DNA of 63,769 nucleotides, filler included, from Reclinomonas americana ATCC 50394 (GCA_048213135.1; 4 parts of 2 records of this genome joined end to end with filler, not necessarily neighbours in it), one strand, 5' to 3'. Shown: positions 1 to 22,300, numbered from the whole stretch's first letter. Notes: generated by a model from the sequence alone, not told the origin. Numbers and translations: made by a program.

Positions 1-3000
1 GGGGGAGAATGCGGGGGAGAAAGCGACGCACCATCTGGATGCGGTAGTCCGCAAGTGTGCGACCATCCTGCAACAACAAACGACGCACAGTGAATACAGC
101 ACATCAGACTTCATCAAAGGGGGAGATTGAGACAGAAAACACGCACCTCCAGCTGCTTGCCTGCGAAAATGAGGCGCTACGCGGAAAGACAAGAAACGAA
201 GGAAGAGTCAGCACGCAGGCCGACTCGGGGACAACGCACAATGCAACACACCTGCTGATCTGGCGGAATACCTTCCTTGTCTTGGATAAGGTACTTGATA
301 TCCATAATTGTGCTGATGGCATCCACAATAATCGTGATTGTCTTGCCGGTCTGCGAGAATTAGATCAGCCTCCAGGCACATGCGCAATCGTCGCAAAAAT
401 AATGTCGACAAACTCATTCTCTCTCTCTCTCTTCCCCCACCACACCCGCAACGCACCAGAGTCTTCACAAAGATTTCGAAGGACGAGCCAAACACGTACA
501 CGCGATCCACAGGTGACGGATAGAAGGCCGACAGGTAATGCTCGACTGACTGCGGTGCGTCGTTGGAGATCAATCGCAACACAGCTGTCGTCAACACCAA
601 TGAGATTGAGCACCACGACTGCGATTCTTTGGAGCGCACAAATGCACACGCACCCAGATCCACGGCCACCAGCGTCACAGAGGCGCCAGCCACCGGACGG
701 TTGTTGGCATCCACCACACGAACCAGCGCCGACGATGCGCGTCCAGGGACAGCAGCCTCCGCAGGGAACTCAACGGTGGCCTCGAGTGTGCGCGACGCGG
801 TGGACACCCAACGCGAGTGCGTGCTCGGACGGTTCGGCACGTCGGAGCGGACGTACACAATGTGTACCATCACGCAAGGGACCATCTGCGGCAACGATGA
901 GTGTGAATCTCTCACGCTGTGGGTGCAGAAGCATCCCCTTCTTACCTGCTCGGTCACCACAAATGGCACCTCGGTGAACTCATTTTCAAGCACCACCTGA
1001 TGCATGCACACACACACACACGTGTGAGCACTCAGAAGAGCGCACGGATGGACAGGTATACACGAACCACACGCGCGTCCTCAATCATGGCGGAGCCAAT
1101 CGTCACAAGCGCGACAAGTCGGCCGTCTGCGTGACGCGGAATGCGCACGGCAGCCGTGCTGCCGACGCGAAGCTGCGTGCACCATTTGGTGAGAGGGGTG
1201 TAATCGCACACAAAAAAACAGACTATCCGGCGCCACTCACCGGCTCCTTGCCGTCGTCCTCCACACCACGCTCGTCGACAATGGTCACCTTGTGCTGCGG
1301 CTGCCGAACCGGCGCGGCAACCGGCCGAGCCACATCCTCTTCCGGCCTCCGTGCCACGTAGTACGAGACGTCGGCACCGTTCCAACGGCCTGCGGCATCG
1401 CGAATGTACGCCGTGACGGTGACAGTTCCCGTTTTCTGCATGGTGACATGCAGAGGATCTCCCTGAGAAGGAGTGGCGAGGCTCGTGAGAAACTCTCCAT
1501 AGTCACAACATCTTCGGCGCGCACGGACGGACGATACCTTGATGGTGCCCTGCGTGTAGTAGCTGGCCACCGTGTACTGTACGAACTCGCGAGTCTGCGT
1601 CTGCTCGACGTGGTACAGCACGACAAGATCCTCGTCGTCCACTCGCTCGCCAAGCTCGTTGACCAACACATGCGACACCGCAACTTCGTCGCCAACGTAG
1701 ACGGCGTTCTTCGGCACACCCAGACCCACATAGCGAGTGGAGGGGTGAATGATGTAACTCGTCTCCGATCCCCACGTCTGCATGCTGCTGTCGGTGGCCA
1801 GCACTTGCACCTGCGCCGTGACCGGGTGCACTGAGGTGGTCGACCGGGCCGCCAGATCGGCACGCAGCTCTCCCTTGTCGCTGAACCTCGCGACGAACTG
1901 ATCCACGTCCTCACGGAGCTCGGACAGGTCCTGCACTCCGCTCAGCGTGAAGTGGTAGTCGGCGAGCTCTGCACACACACGCACATTCGGTCAGAAACAA
2001 GCTAACACGGAGGGACACGAGTGAAATCAGTACCCTTGTCTTTGGCGGAGAAACGGTATCGCTCGTAGGAGACAACAGTGCGCCCAAACGCCGAGGCCAG
2101 CGGATCGCCCGTTTGCAACTTGGCCGTTCCGCGGAGCTTGACTACGTCACCCACCACGCACTGGCCGGGCTCAACGGTGGCCGCAACCACGAATTCAGGC
2201 TGCACAGCAACAACAACAACAACAGCAGCAGCAGCAAGTGAGCTGCATAACATGAGTGGTATTGTTGAGCGCGCTGTGTCCCACCTTGCGATATTGCTGT
2301 TCAGCAGAGTGAGGAATTGAGTGAGCGGCGAATGAGGTAGCCGAGAGACAAGCAACTATAGTCAACACACACAGACCTTGACAGTAATGGTCTTATCGAT
2401 TGAGTCGCCAAACGTGTCAGATCGCACCGTGATCTTGAAATTGGGCACCATTTGACCGTCGGGCATCTGCACAGCGTCCGGCAGCACGAAACGAGACCAG
2501 AAGACACCGGTGGTCGCGTCGTACGTGACCGTGGTGTTGGTGACTCCTGCATGGATTCACGGTGAGCTGCGGGCCTCGTCCTTTCCTCCTCTTCCTCTCA
2601 TCGCCACTCACCGGCAATGTCCACGTAGAGAGTCAGCTTCGGATCGCAGTCGGGGATCACCAGCTGACCGTCGTGCAGATTGAGGCGCATGTCGCCGCGC
2701 ACACAGACTTCCTCGCCCGAGCTGTACAGCCGGCTGTGGATTCACAGAGCAAGAGAGAGAGAAGTGAGCAATGAATGTGAGTAGGCGCGCACGAGGAGGC
2801 GCTGCGTGCTGTTGCACGTACCGGTCCGTCGACATGTGGAAGAGTGCGCGGCCGCCTGCCACCGGTCGCACGCCCGCCATGATGGGAACAACACCCCATC
2901 CAGTCACGTGCCGAACGTGCACACTGTTACACGCGAACTCGTTGGCCGGAATGGTGAGCAGTCCAGCGGCGTCCGAGTGGAAAACCTACGAGCGCACAGT

Positions 3001-6000
3001 ATGAGTACGCACGCACACGGCTCCTAAAAACAGATGCAAAAACAACTGCACCCTTTCTGCTGGCTTTGTGGGATCCGAGCTGTTGAGCAGCCGGAAAGTG
3101 GCGTTGACAAGCGGCTGGTTGTCACCAGTGCTGGCCGCCAGCACAACCGTGCGGCTGTCGCACAAGAACCCGCTGCACCACACAGAAGAAATGGTCACCA
3201 GTGAGCGACGTGCTGCTGCTGAACTGCACCCACTCTCTGACGTGCGCACCAGCGGAATGATTGCACCCACACCAGTGACGAATGGATACGCTCCACCAGA
3301 GTCAATGAGAAGTGACGGGGGTGACCAGGAGTGGGCACAAAGTGGCCCATGCGAGCGTAGTGCGGCAGGACGTTGTGCCCCATCATCGGCGCGTGCTTGA
3401 GACTGTAATGGTAGTTGGTGGAGAGGTCCCACAACGCGGGCGGCAGAGGGCGACCGATTTTGGCAGAGAGTGCCGCCAGCACATCGGGCACCGTCGTCGA
3501 CTTGAGCACCGACAGCTTGACACCGTCCGCCGCCGCCGCCGCCGCTGCCTCGTCCGCAGCATCGCCAAACACGCGCTGAGGCACACGAATGATGACAGTC
3601 ATCTCTTCGTGCGCCATGCCCAGCTCCTCCACGCCGAGATTCGCTGAGAATCCCGCCGGCACCTGTGTCGACACGAGGATGAGCGCCATTGCACCGATAA
3701 AGCAACACATGCAAATGTGACAAGCGTACATTGTCACCACCGACTGCCTCGATCAGCAGCGCCAGTGGCTGATTGCGTCCCTCGTGAGTGAACACCGAGC
3801 CAATCTTGTAGACAGAGTACTCTCCCTCTCGTTCAATCTGTCGAAATGACGAGTGAATAACACACACTGTGCGGACAGAGTGCAAGAGAGGAAGTACGCA
3901 CCGCGAGCGCGGAGCGTCGGTTGGCGGCGCGCACTTTGTTTTCGTAATCGACTCGAGCCGAACTGCCACACGGCGCAAAGTGGGCGCCCACATCGTCTTC
4001 GCTCGGCTGGTACTTGAAGCAGTTGACGGCGACGATGCCTTCCACACGAATCGAGGCTTCCTCCTCTGGCGTCAGGCTCTACAAACATGCCCAGAAAAGC
4101 ATCCCACGTAAACACACACACGCACGCACACAAGGCCCCCAGGGAAGGTATGCAGACCGCAATGGATTTGCCGATCTTGCGCGGCACCGGAGCCAGCGGA
4201 CACATGCCGTAACGCGAGGCAAGTCGCAGTTGCTGACCGTAGTCATCTGTGGCCGAGGCGACGGTAACCTTGTGTGCAGGCACATACTGGTCAGTACAAC
4301 GGAGAGAGCCACCGCCACGCAGACAACGAATGTAGAGACCAACCTTGTAGACGTCAAACGGCACGAACAAGTCTCCGAGGCGGACGGTCACATTGGAGCC
4401 CCACAACGTGAACGGACTGTCATTTTGCTGGCGGCCTCCAAAGTTGACGCGGTCTCCCGGTTTCTCGAGTCGATCGGCCGACAGGAGTTCACCTGCAACA
4501 GGAATGAATTGTGTTGGTGGCGGTGGAAGTGACAATACATAAGCACCGACCGCACGTACCGCGAGTGACCGAAATGATCTTGATGTTGCGAATTTCCGCA
4601 GTGGGGTTCTGTGGTCACATGAGGGAATGGGATGAGAAGGGAGAGGAGATGAGGGAAGGCGGATATAGGACAAAGAGTGGAGAAAGAGAGCACACACAAC
4701 ATGCAGCAGGATTCAGAACTACTGTACGCAGAGTAAAAGTAAACGAAAGGGGAGACACCCGATCGAAAAACAAGCATGATACAATGCCGACCGGCATCGT
4801 CTCATTGTTACGCACCGAAAAGTTCACTTGCAAATGCGTCTGGTTCACGAACGAGACGGAGCTGAGCTCGAATGTTGGCAGAACCTGTCCGACACACACA
4901 GATTAGCTAGCGGCCACGAGCACACAAAAATGTGCTCGTCGTCGTACCTGGAAGTTGAAAGTGTGTTCCTGCAGCGACGGCAGTGGGCCTTCGGCCGACG
5001 GCAGTCCAGCGGCCAGCTTCACCATGACTTGGCTACCGATCGGGAGAGGCCGCGCCGGTTCAAAGTAGACGCGCTGATCGCTGTAGTCGCCACCTCCGTC
5101 GGCTGGCTCCGGCGCCGCGACTGCATCACACAACTGCGTAGCGCGCATTTTTGCAAGTCAGCGGCACTCACCACAGCACCCCTCTACTCCACAAGGCACT
5201 TACATGTGTTGCGGCCTCGGCTCCATTCAGCTGCCAGAACGAGATGCCAGGGATAATGAGCTCTCGCACAATCTGCGACGGCAGTGATTTGAGTGGACGG
5301 TGGCACAATGCACGCGAATGAACGAAAGGGACAACTTGCCTGCTGATCGAACAGCAGCTCGCACCGTGGTGTCTGCGTGCGAACCACTCCCTGCGGAGCC
5401 CACGTTTGCACCTTCATGCGCGGCGTGGTGAAGCGGATGCGACGCGGGCGCCCAAGAGTCTTGCCGGTGATGGAGCGAGCATCTGCGAAGAATGAAATAG
5501 TTGAATTGGAAAAGAGGATAGCGAAAAGAACGGCAAGAAGCACATTGCAGCTCACCCTCTGTCACCGTCACCGTCTGCATTGTTGCACGAATGGATGAGT
5601 GCGTGCACAATCTCAACGGGAGCAAGGCGACACGAGACGCAACAAATGTCGTGGAGCCATTCAACCGCGCCGGTTTGTAGGTCACAATCTGCGGATTCTG
5701 CCACACAGTGACACCGCCAAAGAAGAACTCGGGGTTCTCGCACATGAGGAAGGCCGGCGGCTCCTCGCTCATGTCCTCCGGCGACAACTCGGTCATGGGT
5801 TGCGAGAACTCGACCACAATCTACGCAACACCACGAGTCACGACAACAACAACAACAACAACAACGACAAAGCCGAGTCGGACAGCACAAACCTGCGGGT
5901 CGTAGCCATTCACCACACCATTCGGTGCCACACGGGCCACCACCAGCGGCTTGTCGGCATCGTCGTCGACCGGCACCTCGTCCACGATGCCCACTGTGAA

Positions 6001-6906
6001 TGCATAAGAAACACAGTACTCGTCTCCCTCTCTCCCACTCTGTTGACAATACACGCAACGCTGAGTGATCTCCACGGCATCGCCGAGATCGACCGCCTCC
6101 GCCGGCACCATTCCCTCTGCCACGGCTGCCGGATCAAAGTTCGCGTCCTCGCCACTGCCGTCCTCCAGATCCATGCTTTCGCAGACTCGAGCCGCAAACG
6201 ACTCGCCAGCAGCACCGTGCAGCGGAGTCGCATGATCTGCAGACGAGGAGGTCATGAGACAAGAGACAAGAGACAGGGTGCATCCTCTTCGCGCAACTGA
6301 CAGCCGCGGCCTGTGCAGCCGCATCCACTGCCTCGCCGGCCTCTCCCCTCGGCTTGAATCCAATGGACGCCGACGCCAGTGCAGTGCCGCCGGGGAACGC
6401 CCACAAAGTCAGCTGCGGCGACTACATGGTAAGCACTATAAATAGATTCGGATGATTATCATCAATGCACACACACACACCGTCGGCATCTCGTCGCCCT
6501 CTGTTGGGATTCCGGCCAACTGACAGATCTCTGCCAGCGACTTGCTGGTGTTGACCACGTGACCACCGCGCTCAGTGACGAGCACCATTGATACATCGTC
6601 ATCCGCTTGCAATTCATCGTCGTCACCAGCAGCAGCAGCATCTGCGGGGACGAGGAATCGCGACAAGCCCGGGTCCTCCTCGCACACAATCGACAGCACC
6701 ATTTCCAGTGGGAAGTCGGCGGGGAACTCCATGCCGGTCTGAATGGCCTCGGCTGGCTTGCCCGCAATGTTGTGCTGATGGGCGACATCTCCAACCTGCT
6801 CCTCCTCCACCTCTTCTTCTTCGTCTCCGTCCCGCATTTGCCGGTTCACGGCAGCCACCACGGCGGGTGGCAGGAGGTCGGGCGACACGATGCGAAGGCG
6901 GATCAT
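1..6906 (-). CDS. Bacterial-type alpha-2-macroglobulin-like protein, multi-exon, with an internal ubiquitin domain; 3' part lies beyond the left edge
   Basis: Spliced exons give motifs of bacterial A2M in the expected order: [64 protein letters not shown] (TDRxxYRPGE); [72 protein letters not shown] (the VDxAVL motif before the bait region). ATG at 6906; GT-AG junctions keep frame where I checked them. Confidence 0.88.
32..480 (-). other. Ubiquitin domain encoded within the A2M gene (exon segments 457-480, 252-350, 147-176, 32-67)
   Basis: Spliced translation [63 protein letters not shown]. All three introns are phase-0 [12 protein letters not shown] is in the same exon (457-584) and frame as the A2M sequence [23 protein letters not shown], with no Met at ubiquitin position 1. 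Confidence 0.95.
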
Positions 6907-7258: not shown

Positions 7259-8684
7259 TCACCACTCCTCTCGATTGCCAACAACAAACACCTGCATCTC
7301 GGCATCCTCCAAGATAAAGCAACGCAACACGAATCGCGGTAGTGGTTCCATGCCAATTCCGATCTCGTCCATCTGCAGAGCCTCCACAGCCAGTTTCGCC
7401 GACTTCAACTCTCGCGCGATCAACGCCTGTTTACTCCGTTGCCCTGCAGCACGAGGCGAATGAGCAGCACCATCACCTTTGCAAGTGCACCCCACGCAGT
7501 ACCGCACCGGCATCCCACACGCGCACTGTGCGATCCTCCGACACGCTGACAACGCGGCCCTGGCGCACAAACGCAACATCGGTCACGTGGCGGTTGTGTC
7601 CGTGCATGGCATGCGAAATGCTTTGGAACAGGTCTCCGTGGCGAGTCCACACGCGGGCAATGTACCCTGCGGTCGTGTGCACAGTCAGCACAAAGGGCGA
7701 GAGAGTATCAACGGGGACACGCTGCGCACCTTGAATACCCAACACATGACGGCCGTTGCGAGACACTTGCAGCGATGATGGACGGTGGCCGTGGTAACTC
7801 GACGGCTGAAACCAGTCCACCAGAACCTCTCCATTCGACATGTCATACTCTGTAAAGTGCAGCCTGTGGTTCTCCCCCTCAGCGTCGACAGCCATCAGCT
7901 GGTGCGCCTCACACCCAATGATTGTGCACGAATTGAATTGGGCCACCGTCCTGCCGACTGCGTGCACCTCCACGGCCGCGGAGTGGCCGTCGGTCTCCAG
8001 GCGCCAGAATGAGAGCGTGCTCTGGTCTCCGAGCACCGCCATGAAGCGGCTGTCGGCCGATATGTGAACAGACCGCGCATTGGCAACGGACAGCTTGTAC
8101 AACTCCAAGCCGTCACTCAAACGCAGCAACGAGACGCCCTCCGCTGAGGCCACCGCAACCATGGCCAAGGTGTCATCAGCGGGCAGCGTCAACCCGCAGG
8201 CAATCGCGTGCACTCTGCTCGGAGCCCTGGGCGTCGACCACAGCACACAACTGCCCTCCTGCACATGCTCCGTGTCCACCAACCACAGACGCGCACAGTT
8301 CTCTGGGTGCATGCAGCCGACCAGCAAGCGCAGCAGCTGCCCACCTCCTTGTCGGCCACTCGGAGGAGGCACAAAGAGCAGGTGCGTGACGCTGCATTCG
8401 GGATCACGGAGCACGCCCACACGATTCCACTCGGCGCCACTGCGCCACACAAACACATGGATGCCGTCGCCACACGAGGTTGCCATGAAGAACCCATCCG
8501 TGGACACTGCCACGCAGCGAATGCAGTGGCGCAGCTTGCACAGCACGGTGTGTGGTGTGCGCATGTTTGTGTGAATGCGTCGCGAGGAGCAAGTCTCGTC
8601 AAAGAAGCTGTCATCGCTGTCACTTCCACTGCCACTACCATCGTCTTTCGTGGGAGCAGGTGAGCGGGAACGAGAGGCACCCAT
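7259..8684 (-). CDS. WD40-repeat protein with N-terminal MGxxxS myristoylation-like motif and shared C-terminal VLRCF module (2 exons)
   Basis: WD repeats such as GHNRHVTDVAFVRQGRVVSVSEDRTVRVWD; N-terminus MGASRS; last exon 7259-7443 encodes GQRSKQALIARELKSAKLAVEAL..EPLPRFVLRCFILEDAE. Confidence 0.88.
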
Positions 8685-8748
8685 GATGCGTCGACGAAGA
8701 AGAAGAGTGACTCACTCGACTCGTCTGTCCTCAGTCGTCCCCGCTACG
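8685..8748. promoter_or_regulatory. Probable bidirectional promoter (64 bp) between divergent WD40 genes
   Basis: Start codons at 8684 (minus) and 8749 (plus) are only 64 bp apart. Confidence 0.5.
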
Positions 8749-10253
8749 ATGAGTGCCTGTGAGCGCACGTTCTCCAGTCGCCCGGCCATCATCTCGCTCT
8801 CTGTGCACTCTGCGAGTGGACTGGTGGCGACCTCGTGCACCGATCATGTGGTGCGCCTGTACGATCTGCACAGTGGCGAGTGTGTGTGCGATCACATTGA
8901 GTCGCGCACTCGTGCACTCATTGCGCAGGTGCACTTCTCGCCCGTGTCGGTGCTGAGTGGCTCCGATGTGTGGCTGGTGTGTGGCATGTTTGGGGTCATT
9001 GAGGTGTGGCATGTGATTGAGCGGCAGCAGCGACAACCGCGACTGGCGTGGACTGTGAACGACACCGAGTCGTTTGCGGGTGTGTGCTGTCTGGCCATGA
9101 CACACGATCAGGAGCTGGTGTTTAGTGGCTCCGAGGACAATGGAGTGGTGTATGCGTGGGCGCGCGATCCGGTGGTGCGGGCGAGCGGCACGTGGATCCG
9201 CACGTACGGGACCACTCGCATGGTGGGTGTGATCGAGGCCGTGTATGCACTGGCGGTGAGCCAAGACGACCGGTTACTGGTGTCGGGGACGTGCTTTGGT
9301 TCGATTGTGGTGTGGGACATTGAGTCGGGCCTCGCGGTGCGCCGCATGGACAACAGGATTCACGTCTGGTCGCTGGCCGTCACTGAGCGTGAGCCAGACG
9401 AGTTGCTGGTGGTCAGCGCACACGACGATCAGCGGATACGCGTGTGGGAGCTGGCGACGGGCACGCAGCTGAGTGAACTGTGCAGCGATAGCGAGTGGGT
9501 GTCGTCGGTGGCCATGTCAATCGATGGCACTCATGCAGCCAGTGGATCGGAAGGTATCGCAACAGAAAGGGAGATGATCAGAGGTTGTTGACTCACTCTC
9601 CTCCTTGGCAGACGGCACGGTGTATGTGTGGCGGCTGAGCCCACCGGCTCAGGTGGCCGTCTTGCGCGGTCACACAAAATGCGTATGTGGCGTGGCGTTT
9701 CTGCCCGACGATCGCATCGTCAGTGCCTCGCGCGACGGCACTGCGCGACTGTGGGCGGGCGGTGCGTCCCTTGTTTGTGCTGTTATCTTGCCTTTGCCAA
9801 CAATGTCTCATGCTTCCTCTCTTGTCTGTGTGTGCTGCAGTGTGGAGCACGCGGTGGTGTGCACAGCAAGAGTGGGCCACCAGCATCCGTGCCGTGCACG
9901 CACTCCCTTCATCCTGCGACGACAGCGGAGAACCTCTGCCACGTCTCGTACTGCGCTGCTTCCTGCTCGAGGACGCACGACTGGTGGCACTCGCGGAAGG
10001 AGGTGTGGCTGGCATTGCACACATACATCCACACGCACGCTGACTGCTCGACACAGTGACCACCGAGCCGGCGATCGAAGCATCAAGGGAGGAGCTCGAG
10101 CAGGAGCTAGACGCGGCTCTGTGTCGCGAAGACGAGTGGCGTGAACGACTGCTGCTCACCGAGCGCGAGCTGGACGCCGCGCAACAACAAGTGCGCGAAC
10201 TGCGCGATCAACTGGCTCGATTGCAACAATCATCATCACTAGCCACCGTGTAA
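8749..10253 (+). CDS. WD40-repeat protein with VLRCF module and C-terminal coiled coil (4 exons)
   Basis: WD motifs ([55 protein letters not shown]). Exons about 8749-9553, 9612-9761, 9841-~10002 and ~10057-10253. The third exon encodes [31 protein letters not shown]; the last is heptad-rich. Confidence 0.85.
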
Positions 10254-10835: not shown

Positions 10836-12441
10836 ATGGTCAGCGCGCGAGGGGCACTGCTCCTCTTGCTATGCACTCTCGTCTTTGTACTTCTCTCACA
10901 ATGCGCACATGTGCTGAGCTTCAGCAGTGAGTGACATGCGGAAAACAAACTGCGCGCATTGATGTGTTCATGCTGACTCTTCCTTCTCTTCCTTTCCCAG
11001 TCAAGTACCGCGCATTCACCTCTGCATACGAGGAAGTGCGTCGCTCTTCTCTCTTCTCCCCTTCCCCTGTGTTCTCTGTCTCTCTCACACACGCGCGCAT
11101 GCAGAAACGACGATGCTGGTGCCCCGACGAGTCGATGCCAGTGAGTACGCGTCTGTGTGGCAACCTCACGTGGTGCGCGCTGGATCGAGAGACCGGGCGC
11201 ATGCTGCTCTTCAAGTGCGTCGAGAGGGAACTGTCGGTGACCGACATGCGGCGCTCGGGCAAGGCATTCACCCCGATCAATGGCGCGTGGGTGCTGGCAT
11301 CGCCCGAGGAGCAGCAGCAGGCTAGCGAGGTGTGTCCGTCGGTGCACGAGAGCCTCCAGGAGTGGGTGAGTGTCGTCCTCCGAGTCGTGTGTTCTCTGTG
11401 GCAGGTGTGCAACTCATCGCGTGTACACAGTCGGTCGAAGATGGACACGGTTGGTCTCTGTCGTGCATACTCGCTCAGCGCTCTGCTCCTTCCTGACACT
11501 CCAGCGCGCCTGCAGCCCTCAGTAATATTCCATTCATGGTGTCGGCGCCGGTGTCTGTAAACGGCGTCGTTGAGTCGGCTGTGGTGGGCTCCGGCTTGGT
11601 CACGCCGTCGTTAATGACAGACGGCAGTCCGCCGCCGAGCGTCTCCTGCCTGATGATCTCGTCGCGCCCGGAGCGGCTGGCCTTTGCGGCGCGCGCCATC
11701 CACATGTACATGCAACAGTCGTACTCGGCACGAGAGCTGGTGATTGTGGCCTCGCCCGAGAGCGCACCAGGCCTCGAGCGTGTGCTGGAGGTGGTCGTCG
11801 GCGACAGCGAGCAGCAGCGACGAGCCGGCATTCGCGTGGTGACCATGACAGATGCCAAGTCGCAGACACTTGGCGACATGCGCAACCTATCGGTGCGCGA
11901 GGCCACTGGCGACTACGTGATGGTGTGGGACGACGACGACGTGTACGACCGTGACCGCATCCTTGTGCAACTGTCGACCGTGATTATCGTGCGCCAGTAT
12001 CAAGAGTACGAGAACGGAGGCTTCCCGCCATTGTCGGCCTGCCTGTTACGCCGCCAGCAGTTCATGCAACCTCGTGTATCGCCATCACTCCACATGACCC
12101 AACACCGCGGCTGGGAGAATTCGCTGCTGTGCTTGCGCTCGCAGATGCCCACGTACCCCTCGCTGGATCGAAGGGAGGACAGGGAGGCTGTGGAGCAGCT
12201 TTGGGTACAGAGTACCGTGCTGGTGATTGACGCACCGGCACTGTACACGTACATGTATCACGGCGACAACACGTGGGGCAGCGAGCACTTCTACCACATC
12301 TGGGAGAGCTCGTCGGTGACGTTTGAGGGTGAATCGGCGGCGCAGCTGGTGGCGCAGACCCAACGACGTGCTGGACTCGACAGCGAGTGGAGAATACCCG
12401 GCGAGCTGGGGAAGACAGTGGAACGACTGCTGCTGCAATGA
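10836..12441 (+). CDS. GT2/GT-A family glycosyltransferase, copy 1, with N-terminal signal/anchor
   Basis: Hydrophobic N-terminus MVSARGALLLLLCTLVFVLLSQC, small 5' exons, then one long exon with VSCLMISSRPERL..QQSY..ELVIV..TLGDMRNLSVREATGDYVMVWDDDD..GWENS..ED..YHGDNTW. The 5' exon junctions are approximate. Confidence 0.85.
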
Positions 12442-12847: not shown

Positions 12848-14451
12848 ATGGTCAGCACGCGAGGAGCTCTGCTCCTCCTGCAATGCACTCTCGCGTTTGT
12901 GCTTCTCACACAATGCGCACATGTGCTGAGCTTCAGCAGTGAGTGAATGCGGAAAACAAACTGCGCATTGATGCGTTTATGCTGACTCTTCCTGCTCTCC
13001 CTCCCTCAGCCAAATACCGCGCATTCACCTCTGCGTATGAAGAAGTGAGTCGCTCTTCTCTCTTATCCTCTCCCCCTGTGCTCTTTCTCACACATGCGTA
13101 CAGAAACGACGATGTTGGTGTCCCGACGAGTCGAGGCCAGTGAGTACGCGTCTGTGTGGCAACCTCACGTGGTGCGCGCTGGAGCGAGAGACCGGGCGCA
13201 TGCTGCTCTTCAAGTGCGTCGAGAGGGAACTGTCGGTGGCCGACATGCGGCGCTCGCTCAAGGCGTACACGCCGATCAATGGCGCGTGGGTGCTGGCATC
13301 GCCCGAGGAGCAGCAGCAGGCGGGGGAGGTGTGTCCGTCGGTGCAAGAGAGCCTCCAGGAGTGGGTGAGTGTCGTCCTCCGAGTCGTGTGTTCTCTGTGG
13401 CAGGCGTGCAACTCATCGCGTGCACCCAGTTGATCGAGGATGGACACGGTTGGCCTCCTGCTCATTCGTTCTCGCTTGTCGCTCTGCTCCTTCCTGACAC
13501 TCCAGCGCGCCTACAGCCCTCGTCGACATCCCGTTCATGGTGTCGGCGCCGTTGTCTGTTGACGGTGATGTCGACAACGCAGTGATTGCCTCTGGCTTTA
13601 TCACGCCGTCGTTGGAGGTCAAGACCGATGCAGACGGCAGTCCGCCGCCGAGCGTCTCCTGCCTGATGATCTCGTCGCGCCCGGAGCGGCTGGCCTTTGC
13701 GGCGCGCGCCATCTACATGTACATGCAACAGTCGTATCCGGTACGCGAGCTGATGATTGTGGCCTCGCACGACAGTGCGCCCGGCCTGCAGCGCGTCCTG
13801 GAGGTGGTCGTCGGCGACAGCGAGCAGCAGCAACGAGCCGGCATCCGGGTGGTAGTCGCGGATGCCAAGTCGCAGACACTCGGCGACATGCGCAACCTGT
13901 CGGTGCGCGAGGCCTCGGGCGACTATGTGATGGTGTGGGACGACGACGACGTGTACGACCGTGACCGCATCCTTGTGCAACTGTCGACCGTGATTGTCGC
14001 GCGTCAGCATCAGGAGTACGAGAAAAATGGCTTCCCGCCACTGTCGGCCAGCCTGCTGCGCCGCCTGCAGTTCGCACAGCCTCGCGTGTCTCCGTCGATA
14101 CACGTGACCCATCAACGCGGCTGGGAGAACTCGCTGCTGTGCTTGCGCTCGCAGATGCCCACTTACCCCTCGCTGGATCGAAGCGAGGACAAGAGGGCTG
14201 TGGAGCAGCTAATGATGCAGAGTACCGTGCTGGTGCTAGAGGCTCCGGTACTGTACACGTACATGTCTCACGGCGACAACACATGGGGCAGCGAGCACTT
14301 CAGCCGCATCTGGGAGAGCTCGTCGGTGACCTTTGACGGTGAATCGGCGGCGCAACTGGTGGCGCAGACCCAGCGACGTGCCGGACTCGACAGCGAGTGG
14401 AGAATACCCGGTGAGCTGGGGAAGACAGTGGAACGTCTACTACAACAATGA
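12848..14451 (+). CDS. GT2/GT-A family glycosyltransferase, copy 2 (tandem paralog)
   Basis: Same exon structure and motifs as copy 1; many differences are synonymous and the catalytic ORF 13537-14451 is intact. Confidence 0.85.
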
Positions 14452-14501: not shown

Positions 14502-15129
14502 ATGGCAGAAGGCAGTGCATTGGCAGTCTACGCCTCGACGCTCGACGCGCTCACAGTGGAAAAAGTTCCGATGGGGGCCGCCATGTCACACACACCGCCC
14601 CCTCCTCTTGCGCGTTACTGACCCACTCACATTGCAGCTGCTTCACGAGGCCGTGGACGCCGTGTGTGGCCACGACACACCACGACCACTCTTCAATGCC
14701 GCTCCTCTGCGCGTGCGCGACGATCTTCCGCGCAGTCTCCTCTCGTCCATCACCGACGCCACCAGCGACGCCAGCAGCACAGCTGCCGCTCTGCGCGAGG
14801 TGTGGACGCGCGTGGTGCTGACTGATCGACGAGAGGACCTGCGAGTGGCCGCGCGCGAGGCCACTGTGCGCGATCTCTCGTCTGCGCAGTGGTCGCTGGT
14901 GGATGTGCACTGGTCGGTGCGTGTGGCGCTGGCCAGTGATACTGTGTGTGGGCAGCAGGTGCCGCTGGTGTTGGTCAAGTTGCGTCTGCGACGAGCGCAG
15001 CGCGGGGACTCGGCTGGCGCCACGGCCGACGAGGAGAGATATGTCACGCTGGAGATGAAGCGGGAGGAGATGGAGCCGTGGTTGGCGTCGCTGGCGGCCG
15101 CCAAGCACGCCCTTGATGAGTTTGCGTGA
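14502..15129 (+). CDS. COMMD8: COMM-domain protein, COMMD8-like (2 exons)
   Basis: LLHEAVDAVCG resembles the COMMD8 N-terminal helix; COMM domain LVDVHWSVRVALASDTV..VPLVLVKL..VTLEMKREEM..LASLAAAK. Confidence 0.75.
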
Positions 15130-19300: not shown

Positions 19301-22300
19301 AGCACACATGCACACACATGCACACACATGTAGCACATCGAAAAATCTCACCGAATTCGAGCAACCGGGGCAACTCATTTGCAGCACGAAGCCATCGAGT
19401 GTCGACAGTGTGGTGTTGAAGACGTCGGTGACCATCACAGCCACAGTTCGAGCCTGCGCTGCCGACGGTGGCATGGCCATCGGCGTTTCATGCACTGCCT
19501 TGGCCGTGAACGGAGCTACGCACACAACACACAACAAGTCAAGATCAAAACCCGCCACAATGTACCATTCTGCTGCACGTACGCAACATGACGCCGTGCT
19601 GTTTCCGTAGGCTGCCGAATTGCCGACAAATGTGAGGCCACGCTGCTGATCCCATATTGGTTGCCACACGACAGTGGCCAGTCGGAGCAGTTCGAGACCA
19701 TTGACGGCTCCATCCCAGAATATGCCAGCTGTCGCGAAAACACGGATAAGAAGAATTAATCTCACTTGCACGCGCGTGCCTGCTCCGACTCTTCACACAA
19801 ACCGCCACCACCCGGAGCAATGTCGCCGTCGCTGAGGGCTGATTTGAGTGCAATGTTGTGATTGAACTGCACCGACTGGAGACTGACGCCCAGCGGATCG
19901 GAGAAGGCAGTGGTCCGCGTTTCAACAGTCGTCGAATCCAGGGACGCAAAATTGACGTACAGAGCCGCACCGCGACGACCATTGTTGCCATCAAACAGCG
20001 TGTTGGAAATGGACGCCGCGCCGACTGTTATCAAGCTGATGGCGCCACCATCCTGCACGGCCGAGTTGCGAGAGAAGATTGACTGCTGAACGGAGAATGA
20101 GGTGAAGGATGTGGCACTGATTGCACCGCCGTTGGAGCCTGTTGCAGCATTGCCGGAAAACGTTACGCCAGTCATATTGACCGTGGCCGAGTCCTGAATC
20201 AACATGGCGCCTCCTGTCGGAGCAAAGTTGCCGACAAAGGAGCCGTCGCTAAGCGACAGCTGCACAGAATCGGCAACGTAGAGAGAGCCACCAGAGTTGG
20301 AGGCCACATTTTCCGTGCACGTGACAGTGTCGAGTAGAACTTGCGCACTGCCAGCGAGAAACGCCGAACCGCCCGAGTAGGCCGCTGACCCATATTGCAG
20401 CTGCCCCGCGAGGTGTGTTAGCAGGCATCATCAACCACGTCCCACATGGACAAACACGGACGGAGAAAAGAAACCTGGCTGAAAGCCTCCTGCCACGTCG
20501 TCAATCCGGTGGCAAACACATGACCGCCATCGGTCTGAGCCTTGTTGTCGGAGATGGTGGCCGCCGAAGAAAAGAGCCGTGCCACCTGTTGCGAGTAAAT
20601 GCCACCTCCCGCCAGCGTAGCGCTGTTGGAATCGAGAGTCACCACGAAATTGGTGACGGTGGCGGCGCCGCTCCTGTGGTTCAAGCGACGCCTGGTCAGC
20701 ATGCAGCGCACTATTCTCACACTTGCTCGCCATCACGCAACAGATACATGCCACCGCCATCGGCCCGAGTGGCCACGTTGCCAGATATCAAAACGTAGTT
20801 GAAAAAGTGACTGCTTTGATCGGTGACAAACATGCCACCGCCAAAGGTGGCACGATTCTTGATAACAGACGACTGGTACCATTCCGTGATGGCGCTGACA
20901 CCCGCATAAAACCCGCCCCCAAAGCCCACAGCTGTGTTATTGTAGACCACGGAACCGCCTTGTACCGTAAGCTGTGCCGTAGACGACATGTACAGACCGC
21001 CACCGTTACTGAAATTGGCCATATTGCTTGTCACGTTGCACGATTGAAGCGTCTTCGGGTTGCGCACAGGAAAACACACACACAAAATGAGCGAAATAAT
21101 GGACGCTCCAGGTTGACTGCAAACAAATGTAGTACGCAACTGCCTGGACCATTTGGCCAACCAGTGAGATACCGCCACCGAATTCGGCAGTGTTGAACGA
21201 CACGGTGCTGTTGATCACCGACACTCCACTCTGAGGAAGCACGACGCCGATGCCACCGCCGCTGGCCGTCATGGCAGTGTTGCCAGAGATCACTGAGCGA
21301 ATGATCTTGGAAGAAAGACCGGCAGCAGACACGCCACCGGCACCATTGTCGGAAAATGACAGGTTATTGATGACATACGAGTCCATGATCGTCGAATAGA
21401 AGAGGAGGACGCCACCGCCGCTGGCCACCTGCGCGTTGACGATGTTGCCCTGAAATGTGCAGTTCATCGCCACGCTGGCTGAATCCAAAAGCAGAGCGCC
21501 TCCACCACACGCTTGACCAGCCGACACAGGCGGGGAATACAGCATCAGCACGTTGTTCGCAAACCAGCAATTAATCAGGGTCGAGTTCGTGGTGGCAAAC
21601 ACCGCGCCACCACCGTTGATGGAGCCGGAATCGAAGTATATGTTATCGTTCTTCGAAATTAAGCCTCCCTGACCAGGTTCGTGCGCCTGATTGCCCACGA
21701 GTGTCGAATTGAGCAACTGCACCGGACCTTGGCCAATCATGATAGCGCCTGCGTTGGTACACGCAGCCGTCAAGAACACAGCTATATGTGTGCTTCGATC
21801 ATGCGAACACGAAACCTCCGCCATTGCGCTGGCTGCCACGAGCATCCAGAACATTGTACGCGCCACCAGAGCCTGCACACGGAGAAGAGTGAGTCTTCAC
21901 TGTCCCGAGATGAGAGAACGAGAGGACGCACCATCTCGAATCGACATATTTTGCGTCAGTGTGCAGTTTCGAATTATGGCAGGCGTCTGCACATGAACGA
22001 AGGGGAAATCAGCTTGCGAAAGCGACAGTGGAGTGGAGGTGTGTCAAAGTACACACCGTGGCGCCAGACGCGAGGAATATACCGCTGCGGTATCACCACC
22101 GTCAACGTGAGTACTACAACGCACGGGACAGCTACGATGATTTGGATACATGCACATACCCGCCACCATTGTAGCCGCCGGAACTCGAGCCGAAGCGCGT
22201 GTTGTTTGCTCCGCCGGAACCATTCTCTGCCGTGTACAAGTGCGTTTCTGTGAATCACAAGCACAGCAGCGAAGCGAGACACGTGCACGACGGCGCACCT

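Follow-up and report, generated by a model that had tools for sequence, protein, structure and literature searches.

A truncated macroglobulin gene at the edge of the window

The window, by which we mean the whole stretch of Reclinomonas americana DNA that was analysed (63,769 nucleotides, filler included), is an intron-rich eukaryotic scaffold sequence interrupted by runs of N, and at its beginning lies a macroglobulin gene that contains a ubiquitin domain. GT-AG splice rules alone predict 29 exons with 1549 stop-free codons, separated by 28 GT-AG introns of 57-177 nt each; the start codon (modelled as the ATG at 6906) and some exon borders (2/3, 7) of this model are uncertain. The gene is truncated by the window edge at base 1 and the model ends at ubiquitin codon 63, after which the donor carries the hexamer GTGCGT, the same as after exons 13, 25, 26 and 28; therefore ubiquitin residues 64-76 and the remainder of the gene lie outside the window. 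The features of this gene are as follows.

32..6906, minus strand: macroglobulin gene, bacterial-type alpha-2-macroglobulin (A2M); splice model, with A2M similarity over model residues 951-1473
6481-6906, minus strand: exon 1, 142 residues, acidic; no Pfam match, no fold match, no signal-like stretch
1538..1968, minus strand: exon 21, bacterial macroglobulin MG5/MG6-like domain; Atlas 0.97 (bMG6/bMG5 clusters)
654..885, minus strand: exon 25, bait-region-domain scaffold with the AVD motif (666-658) at its end; A2M_BRD, 42% identity to protein P0004
457..480, minus strand: end of exon 26, ubiquitin 1-8; splice model and alignment
252..350, minus strand: exon 27, ubiquitin 9-41; PDB ubiquitin 9-41, Pfam PF00240 at 25.9 bits (cut-off 25.4)
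288..332, minus strand: rebuilt segment, ubiquitin 15-29, with 11 changes including E16I, S20I, E24M, A28Y and K29L; alignment
147..176, minus strand: exon 28, ubiquitin 42-51, no changes (R42, I44, K48); splice model and alignment
32..67, minus strand: exon 29, ubiquitin 52-63 (S57A, N60R, K63M); splice model and alignment
1..31, minus strand: probable intron that continues past the window edge; pyrimidine-rich, with a GTGCGT donor

A hydropathy scan of the modelled N-terminus, whose start is uncertain and which further upstream exons may precede, gave a peak 11-residue value of 1.7 followed by an acidic run; the model thus has no signal-like N-terminus, and the macroglobulin is hence apparently leaderless. 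Exon 1 was considered as a ubiquitin-like domain and dropped (pLDDT 42, no fold match). Exon 15 (3390..3614, minus strand) may encode a second, much older ubiquitin-like (beta-grasp) domain in the N-terminal half, a lead only: its fold matches, among those listed, are nearly all beta-grasp (best Z 4.6, rmsd 3.0, 64 aligned; Foldseek E>=0.2), the underlying single-sequence model is of low confidence (mean pLDDT 42), and neither Pfam nor the ubiquitin profile returned anything for this exon. The rest of the window holds no second A2M or ubiquitin gene.

The host protein is an A2M of bacterial type

Sequence comparison identifies the host protein as an alpha-2-macroglobulin of bacterial type. The nearest sequence found, the A2M of Treponema saccharophilum (WP_002704453.1), aligns to model residues 1050-1473 with a blastp E of 4e-14 and 113/482 identical positions; five of seven plasmid-borne bacterial A2Ms match the model at E<=0.01, the other two giving no match, and a profile built from all seven scores E 3e-22 on residues 963-1468. 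The chain of MG domains expected of an A2M is thus recognizable over residues 951-1473, while the N-terminal 950 residues match weakly. The protein also has a bait-region domain, after which comes a bait segment: Atlas groups the stretch 457-885 with A2M_BRD clusters (0.92), and the Pfam A2M_BRD match in exon 25 (E 0.0066) falls below the cut-off. A search of PDB sequences with 457-996 returned augmin alone, at E>0.6.

Relatives of the gene itself proved scarce. Among 1.84 billion representative proteins, the stretch 457-885 has 11 matches. Ten of them, which are bacterial repeats of Ig-like or similar type, were rejected, and P0004 is the one that seems genuinely related. P0004 comprises 98 amino acids, and its similarity to exon 25 starts and stops at the borders of that exon, so that it probably represents an exon of an orthologous gene from a different intron-rich eukaryote. 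A metagenome scan with the pair of 457-885 and P0004 confirmed none of 375 stretches, and none of 582 candidates among proteins of 253-2000 residues was a relative of exon 21, the full-length product being probably longer than 2000 residues. A scan of viral sequences with exon 27 gave one match, which was discarded as chance in intron-derived letters. A2M similarity was absent from the best 120 of 367 long ubiquitin-bearing proteins, all multi-copy, and from 124 metagenome or genome loci, many of them short, around ubiquitins with a hydrophobic residue 29 among the matches listed.

Ubiquitin begins in the bait slot

Residue 1 of the ubiquitin domain lies 39 residues past the AVD motif, at the point where the aligned bacterial A2Ms turn variable, and is fused to the preceding macroglobulin segment with zero linker. 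In relatives, the bait ends approximately 64-77 residues past AVD in two clear cases and at approximately 95 in Treponema by our own reading of the sequence; a CxEQ thioester motif stands at +279 to +326 from AVD in 5/6 of the relatives listed, and 654-813 residues follow AVD on its C-terminal side. The start of the domain and the spacing in relatives together place ubiquitin in the bait slot and any thioester half of the protein past the window edge; that ubiquitin begins in the bait slot of an A2M is shown by this alignment of sequences. A CxEQ motif would be expected at a distance from AVD of approximately 280-330 residues plus the length of the insert, likewise beyond the window together with any CUB and C-terminal MG10 domains. 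Instead of a disordered loop, the slot holds a ubiquitin that is 75% identical to the canonical protein.

The embedded ubiquitin is altered on one side only

Against a reference ubiquitin identical to the PDB human sequence (L014:7001-7228), the embedded domain is identical at 47/63 residues, and its 16 changes are M1F, Q2E, L15I, E16I, E18D, P19A, S20I, D21S, E24M, N25D, V26I, A28Y, K29L, S57A, N60R and K63M. All 16 fall outside residues 3-14 and 30-56 and 11 lie inside 15-29; seven require two base changes each. The alignment therefore bears out the first-pass annotation, made from this DNA alone, in its claim that 3-14 and 30-56 are identical to ubiquitin, in its list of retained residues (K6, L8, K11, K27, K33, I36, R42, I44 and K48) and in its K63M, which sits in exon 29. 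The interval that it gave, 147..480, does contain ubiquitin but covers residues 1-51 only, residues 52-63 with K63M being encoded in exon 67-32; similarly, its statement that the recognition surfaces are kept holds for the part of them in residues 1-63, whereas residues 64-76 lie outside the window. There, H68, V70, L71, L73 and the C-terminal tail would complete the two recognition patches of ubiquitin.

The domain carries the L8, I36, R42, I44 and K48 of ubiquitin and, owing to K29L, K63M, M1F and its internal position, does not have the seven lysines and free N-terminal Met of a conjugatable ubiquitin. It is not of the NEDD8/RUB kind: its residues 3-14 are those of ubiquitin, and the second units at five other loci (L114, L139, L148, L154 and L168), which we take to be RUB, depart from them at positions 4, 12 and 14.

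Four phase-0 introns (456-351, 251-177, 146-68 and 31-1, minus strand) follow ubiquitin codons 8, 41, 51 and 63, a density of 4 introns per 63 codons in comparison with approximately 6 per kb across the gene. The domain may either have arrived with introns or have gained them later; among 133 matches, we found no clear case of an intron position common to other ubiquitin genes. Exon shuffling or gene conversion as the source of the unchanged blocks was rejected, because the borders 14|15 and 29|30 lie inside exon 27 and the blocks span introns.

These features also bear on whether the arrangement could be an artefact or a dead gene, arising from mis-splicing, mis-assembly at a scaffold end or a recent, decaying insertion. 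The draft scaffold has N gaps, the window edge interrupts the gene, the model derives from splice rules alone, and read-through at 31 would disrupt the fold after residue 63. Against this stand a single open frame through 29 exons, GT-AG introns of uniform size (three of them complete within ubiquitin), a third-position GC content in the domain (38/61) near that of the host part (1045/1443), and a strongly non-random placement of changes; we therefore consider such an origin very improbable.

The unchanged side exceeds ordinary ubiquitin conservation

We compared the domain with four control sets. Set A comprises 53 distinct near-canonical ubiquitins (80 viral-contig loci), and set B the 79 complete sequences among 116 short proteins that a search with exon 27 returned, a query-biased sample. 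Set C, for which residue 29 had to be hydrophobic and residues 30-39 constant, retains 57 of the 126 metagenome and genome matches listed, namely 21 free and 36 embedded ubiquitins, after removal of 23 sequences that lacked the N-terminus, 20 that had gaps or were too short, 18 affected by indels or intron read-through and 8 duplicates. Set D holds 361 distinct, drifting domains, each 43-51/63 identical to ubiquitin, which belong to 101 of the 120 long multi-copy proteins examined (the best 120 of 367).

Under random placement, 11 changes in the best 15-residue window have P = 0.0002 and a clean run of 27 has P = 0.0003, in agreement with the clustering at 15-29 claimed by the first-pass annotation. 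The location of the changes is nevertheless a common one: the share falling within 15-29 is 69% in the window's domain, 72% in A, 64% in B and, among the matches listed, 58% in free and 50% in embedded members of C, the free ubiquitins of these sets thus showing 58-72%, while D (best 120 of 367) places 26% there. Under a free-ubiquitin site profile, the probability of at least 11 changes in this segment rises to as much as 0.054, and deep scanning in yeast is reported to find the face opposite the patch tolerant of mutation (PMC4862753, as far as its available text goes). Residues 15-29 are the usual variable face of ubiquitin, so the location of the changes proves little by itself.

The unchanged side is far less ordinary. 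Residues 3-14 and 30-56 (39 sites) are intact in none of the 361 domains of D, which have at least 3 and on average approximately 9 changes there, and only 15/361 keep the nine patch residues, with the same outcome when one domain per protein is counted (all from the best 120 of 367 proteins). At equal divergence, the minimum number of changes in these 39 sites is 2 in B (14 sequences) and 2 among embedded members of C (19, from the matches listed). Given 16 changes, the probability of none in the 39 sites is <= 7e-5 under each of four empirical site profiles, a value that is generous because the conserved blocks were defined from this very sequence. Such divergence on one side with none on the other indicates that the domain is selected to be read as ubiquitin and makes decay not credible; the sequence comparison thus supports the view, already expressed in the annotation, that the recognition side of ubiquitin 1-63 is under selection.

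A hydrophobic gain on the back face

We scored ten sites that we take to be exposed in ubiquitin (16, 18-22, 24, 25, 28 and 29), nine of which are changed in the window's domain; five of these nine are now hydrophobic (I, I, M, Y and L). The five substitutions had been listed as changes from polar to hydrophobic, and all five are present, although only four are of that kind, since A28 is not polar. With site 29 excluded, the hydrophobic share of changes is 4/8 in the window, 2/114 in A, 18/376 in B and, among the matches listed for C, 9/89 in free and 51/226 in embedded ubiquitins, such that free ubiquitins show a gain of 2-10%. The rate in D is 306/1313, and none of its 361 domains has five (best 120 of 367). 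Two of the 36 embedded domains of C (matches listed) reach the window's count of four over the nine sites without 29, and the binomial P for the excess is 0.037 at a background of 23% and 0.13 at 32%, for sites that were picked after the sequence had been seen. The excess over other embedded ubiquitins (23%) is therefore modest, and that over free ubiquitins far larger: the hydrophobic face described in the annotation is a real gain at the top of the range, in a direction that other embedded ubiquitins share.

Among 550 controls (C and D being drawn from the matches listed), F1, L29 and A57 are common, whereas I16 occurs in none, M24 in one and I20 in three. In 14 open reading frames scanned, F1, E2, L29 and further hydrophobic gains occur in single embedded ubiquitins of VIT-VWA, DUF4139 and ankyrin-RING proteins, hosts that have no A2M similarity. 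Embedded ubiquitins from metagenomes (L122, L126, L167, L155, L164 and L146) resemble the Reclinomonas domain in being internal, in their changes at 1-2 and 15-29 and in some hydrophobic gain; they differ in their hosts, and among the matches listed for C, residues 3-14 and 40-56 are intact in 1 of 36 single embedded ubiquitins, the remaining 35 having at least one change.

One could accordingly regard the domain as an ordinary embedded ubiquitin, in which purifying selection maintains the usual surfaces and the tolerant face is left to drift; its hydrophobic residues would then be incidental or touch nothing but the adjacent linker, and it would have no particular function as decoy or dock. 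That free ubiquitins vary at the same sites, that embedded ubiquitins outside any A2M acquire similar residues and that two of them match the window's count all fit this account; it does not explain why no equally diverged control, among the matches listed, has so clean a recognition side (minimum 2-3 changes), nor the near absence of I16, I20 and M24 elsewhere, and we judge it quite improbable.

The changed residues presumably ring the old N-terminus, which is the attachment point; the side formed by this region and the back of the helix comprises residues 1, 2, 16-21, 24, 28, 29, 60 and 63. The natural reading of this pattern is that the hydrophobic face is buried against a neighbour, and plausibly this neighbour is the macroglobulin body.

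Discussion

An unchanged recognition side joined to a rebuilt back side suggests a lure for enzymes that cut ubiquitin, and the reading that we favour, at slightly less than an even chance, is that the gene encodes a cytosolic A2M of bacterial type baited with a tethered ubiquitin, on which deubiquitinases would spring the trap. USP enzymes contact the distal ubiquitin through residues that lie in 2-14, 35-49 and 62-76. The surface gripped by this family is described as approximately 30 residues (PMC5434665, in the part available). Upon cleavage of the bait, bacterial A2Ms are reported to free it, expose the CxEQ thioester and trap the protease (PMC4498604, in the portion available), and exchanging the bait alters the prey specificity of an A2M, according to the accessible text of PMC9918453. 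By analogy, if the tail beyond the window ends in Gly-Gly, a deubiquitinase would grip the domain as it does a distal ubiquitin and cleave after G76; this cut would free the bait and expose the thioester, and the enzyme would be captured. Partners would no longer read the region around the former N-terminus and behind the helix, which would now serve as a docking surface that seats ubiquitin on the macroglobulin and turns the patch and tail outward, and the loss of K29 and K63 would remove two chain-attachment sites. The prey would most likely be a deubiquitinase that an intracellular bacterium or a virus introduces. Weighing against the bait reading, both the Gly-Gly tail and the thioester domain would lie outside the window.

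The cell's own enzymes complicate this proposal, as USP5, USP7, USP9X, UCHL3 and OTULIN are reported to process ubiquitin precursors (PMC4522658, in the section available), and the available text on pestivirus polyproteins describes an internal, N-terminally truncated ubiquitin as a processing signal for cellular hydrolases (PMC8310069). Since host enzymes are efficient at cleaving ubiquitin fusions, one would expect immediate cleavage of an intact tail, which would suit a maturation site equally well. Because such enzymes cut even internal, N-terminally clipped fusions, the domain might instead be a built-in processing site, at which the organism's own deubiquitinases cut constitutively or on a signal and thereby arm or mature the macroglobulin; the N-terminal half would then end in ubiquitin and might be activated by E1 and conjugated. 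This alternative predicts an identical pattern of conservation, and R42 and I44, which are required for activation and binding in the part of PMC4862753 available, are retained. A maturation cut within the bait would, by the mechanism of PMC4498604, fire the trap on the organism's own enzymes, and the ubiquitin sits exactly at the bait slot; we regard constitutive or signalled processing as somewhat unlikely.

Alternatively, the tail or the thioester may have been lost and the ubiquitin may remain uncut, recruiting ubiquitin-binding proteins to a macroglobulin scaffold, with proteasome shuttles, autophagy adaptors, E3s or deubiquitinases held without cleavage as candidate partners. The visible conservation concerns the binding side only, the tail being outside the window; type II bacterial A2Ms without CxEQ exist (for example, L217 from E. 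coli); and the possible ubiquitin-like fold in exon 15 is a hint of a scaffold function. Uncut ubiquitin fusions are reported to be primed mainly at K29 (PMC2173284, as far as the accessible text extends), so that its absence suits a stable, uncut fusion, and this priming role is possibly another reason for the loss of K29. The position in the bait slot favours a trigger instead, and tandem domains, which mostly have no cleavable tail (L-R-G-G in 27/361 domains of set D, best 120 of 367), lose patch residues that this ubiquitin keeps. We think an uncut docking module unlikely.

Macroglobulin traps have been described as extracellular or periplasmic, with baits that are disordered peptides. In a search at the level of abstracts, which covered few subscription journals, no paper described a macroglobulin baited with ubiquitin or an A2M of bacterial type from a protist. 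Type I bacterial A2Ms (E. coli ECAM, Salmonella SaA2M) share with the Reclinomonas protein the chain of MG domains, the AVD-bearing scaffold of the bait region and the same bait slot. In contrast to them, the Reclinomonas gene is eukaryotic and intron-rich, its modelled N-terminus has nothing signal-like and any thioester would lie outside the window; the type I bait, according to the part of PMC4498604 available, is a largely disordered loop, whereas here it is a folded ubiquitin. Bait-engineered A2Ms (A2Mcap, PMC9918453) likewise owe their specificity to the content of the bait slot, but their baits are laboratory peptides, and the accessible text mentions no ubiquitin bait or deubiquitinase. 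Pestivirus insertions (PMC8310069) resemble our domain as internal ubiquitins that are embedded in a larger protein and altered at the N-terminus; they are described, in the text available, as recent captures by RNA viruses that release NS3, whereas the Reclinomonas ubiquitin is split by introns, rebuilt on one side and set in a protease trap. By analogy only, the arrangement also recalls a strategy of plant immunity. Plant NLR receptors carry integrated decoy domains, copies of a host target that act as a lure inside a defence protein; NLRs signal, while the system proposed here would be a covalent protease trap.

Deubiquitinases are a common class of invader enzymes. If the baited-trap reading is correct, a cytosolic macroglobulin baited with folded ubiquitin would represent an innate-immune device of single-celled eukaryotes against deubiquitinases, and nature would thereby offer a template for covalent deubiquitinase probes made of protein. 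The residue pattern provides a rare natural map of the side whose readability a tethered ubiquitin has to retain. A broader proposal, which we consider somewhat unlikely, is that cytosolic thioester macroglobulins form a family in protists, with exchangeable decoy baits modelled on host proteins that the proteases of invaders attack. The Reclinomonas protein would then be a natural, genetically encoded covalent trap for foreign deubiquitinases, in which the rebuilt back face seats ubiquitin such that the cell's own enzymes are excluded and foreign ones captured.

Other ubiquitins and neighbouring genes

Among the metagenome proteins, five open reading frames (L122:538-3558, L126:107-2842, L167:819-2822, L155:134-2107 and L164:43-2478) encode VIT-VWA or DUF4139 hosts with a single internal ubiquitin in which L-R-G-G (or -G-S) is kept, and such scaffolds may, by analogy, use the same device. 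Near-canonical ubiquitins of eukaryotic type behind an N-terminal extension occur on the Ruminococcus albus plasmid pRUMAL01 (L003:2899-3639) and on a Sphingomonas canadensis contig (L213), the former without a Gly-Gly tail.

Elsewhere in the window, two WD40 genes stand head-to-head upstream of the macroglobulin gene (7473-8684, minus strand; 8575-10144, plus strand). A glycosyltransferase family 2 gene and its upstream open reading frame are tandemly duplicated (10931-12441 and 13094-14451, plus strand), and a COMM-domain gene lies at 14515-15129 (plus strand). Finally, the stretch 19762-20307 (minus strand) shows a weak match to a Chlamydia polymorphic-membrane-protein repeat (E 2.5e-07).
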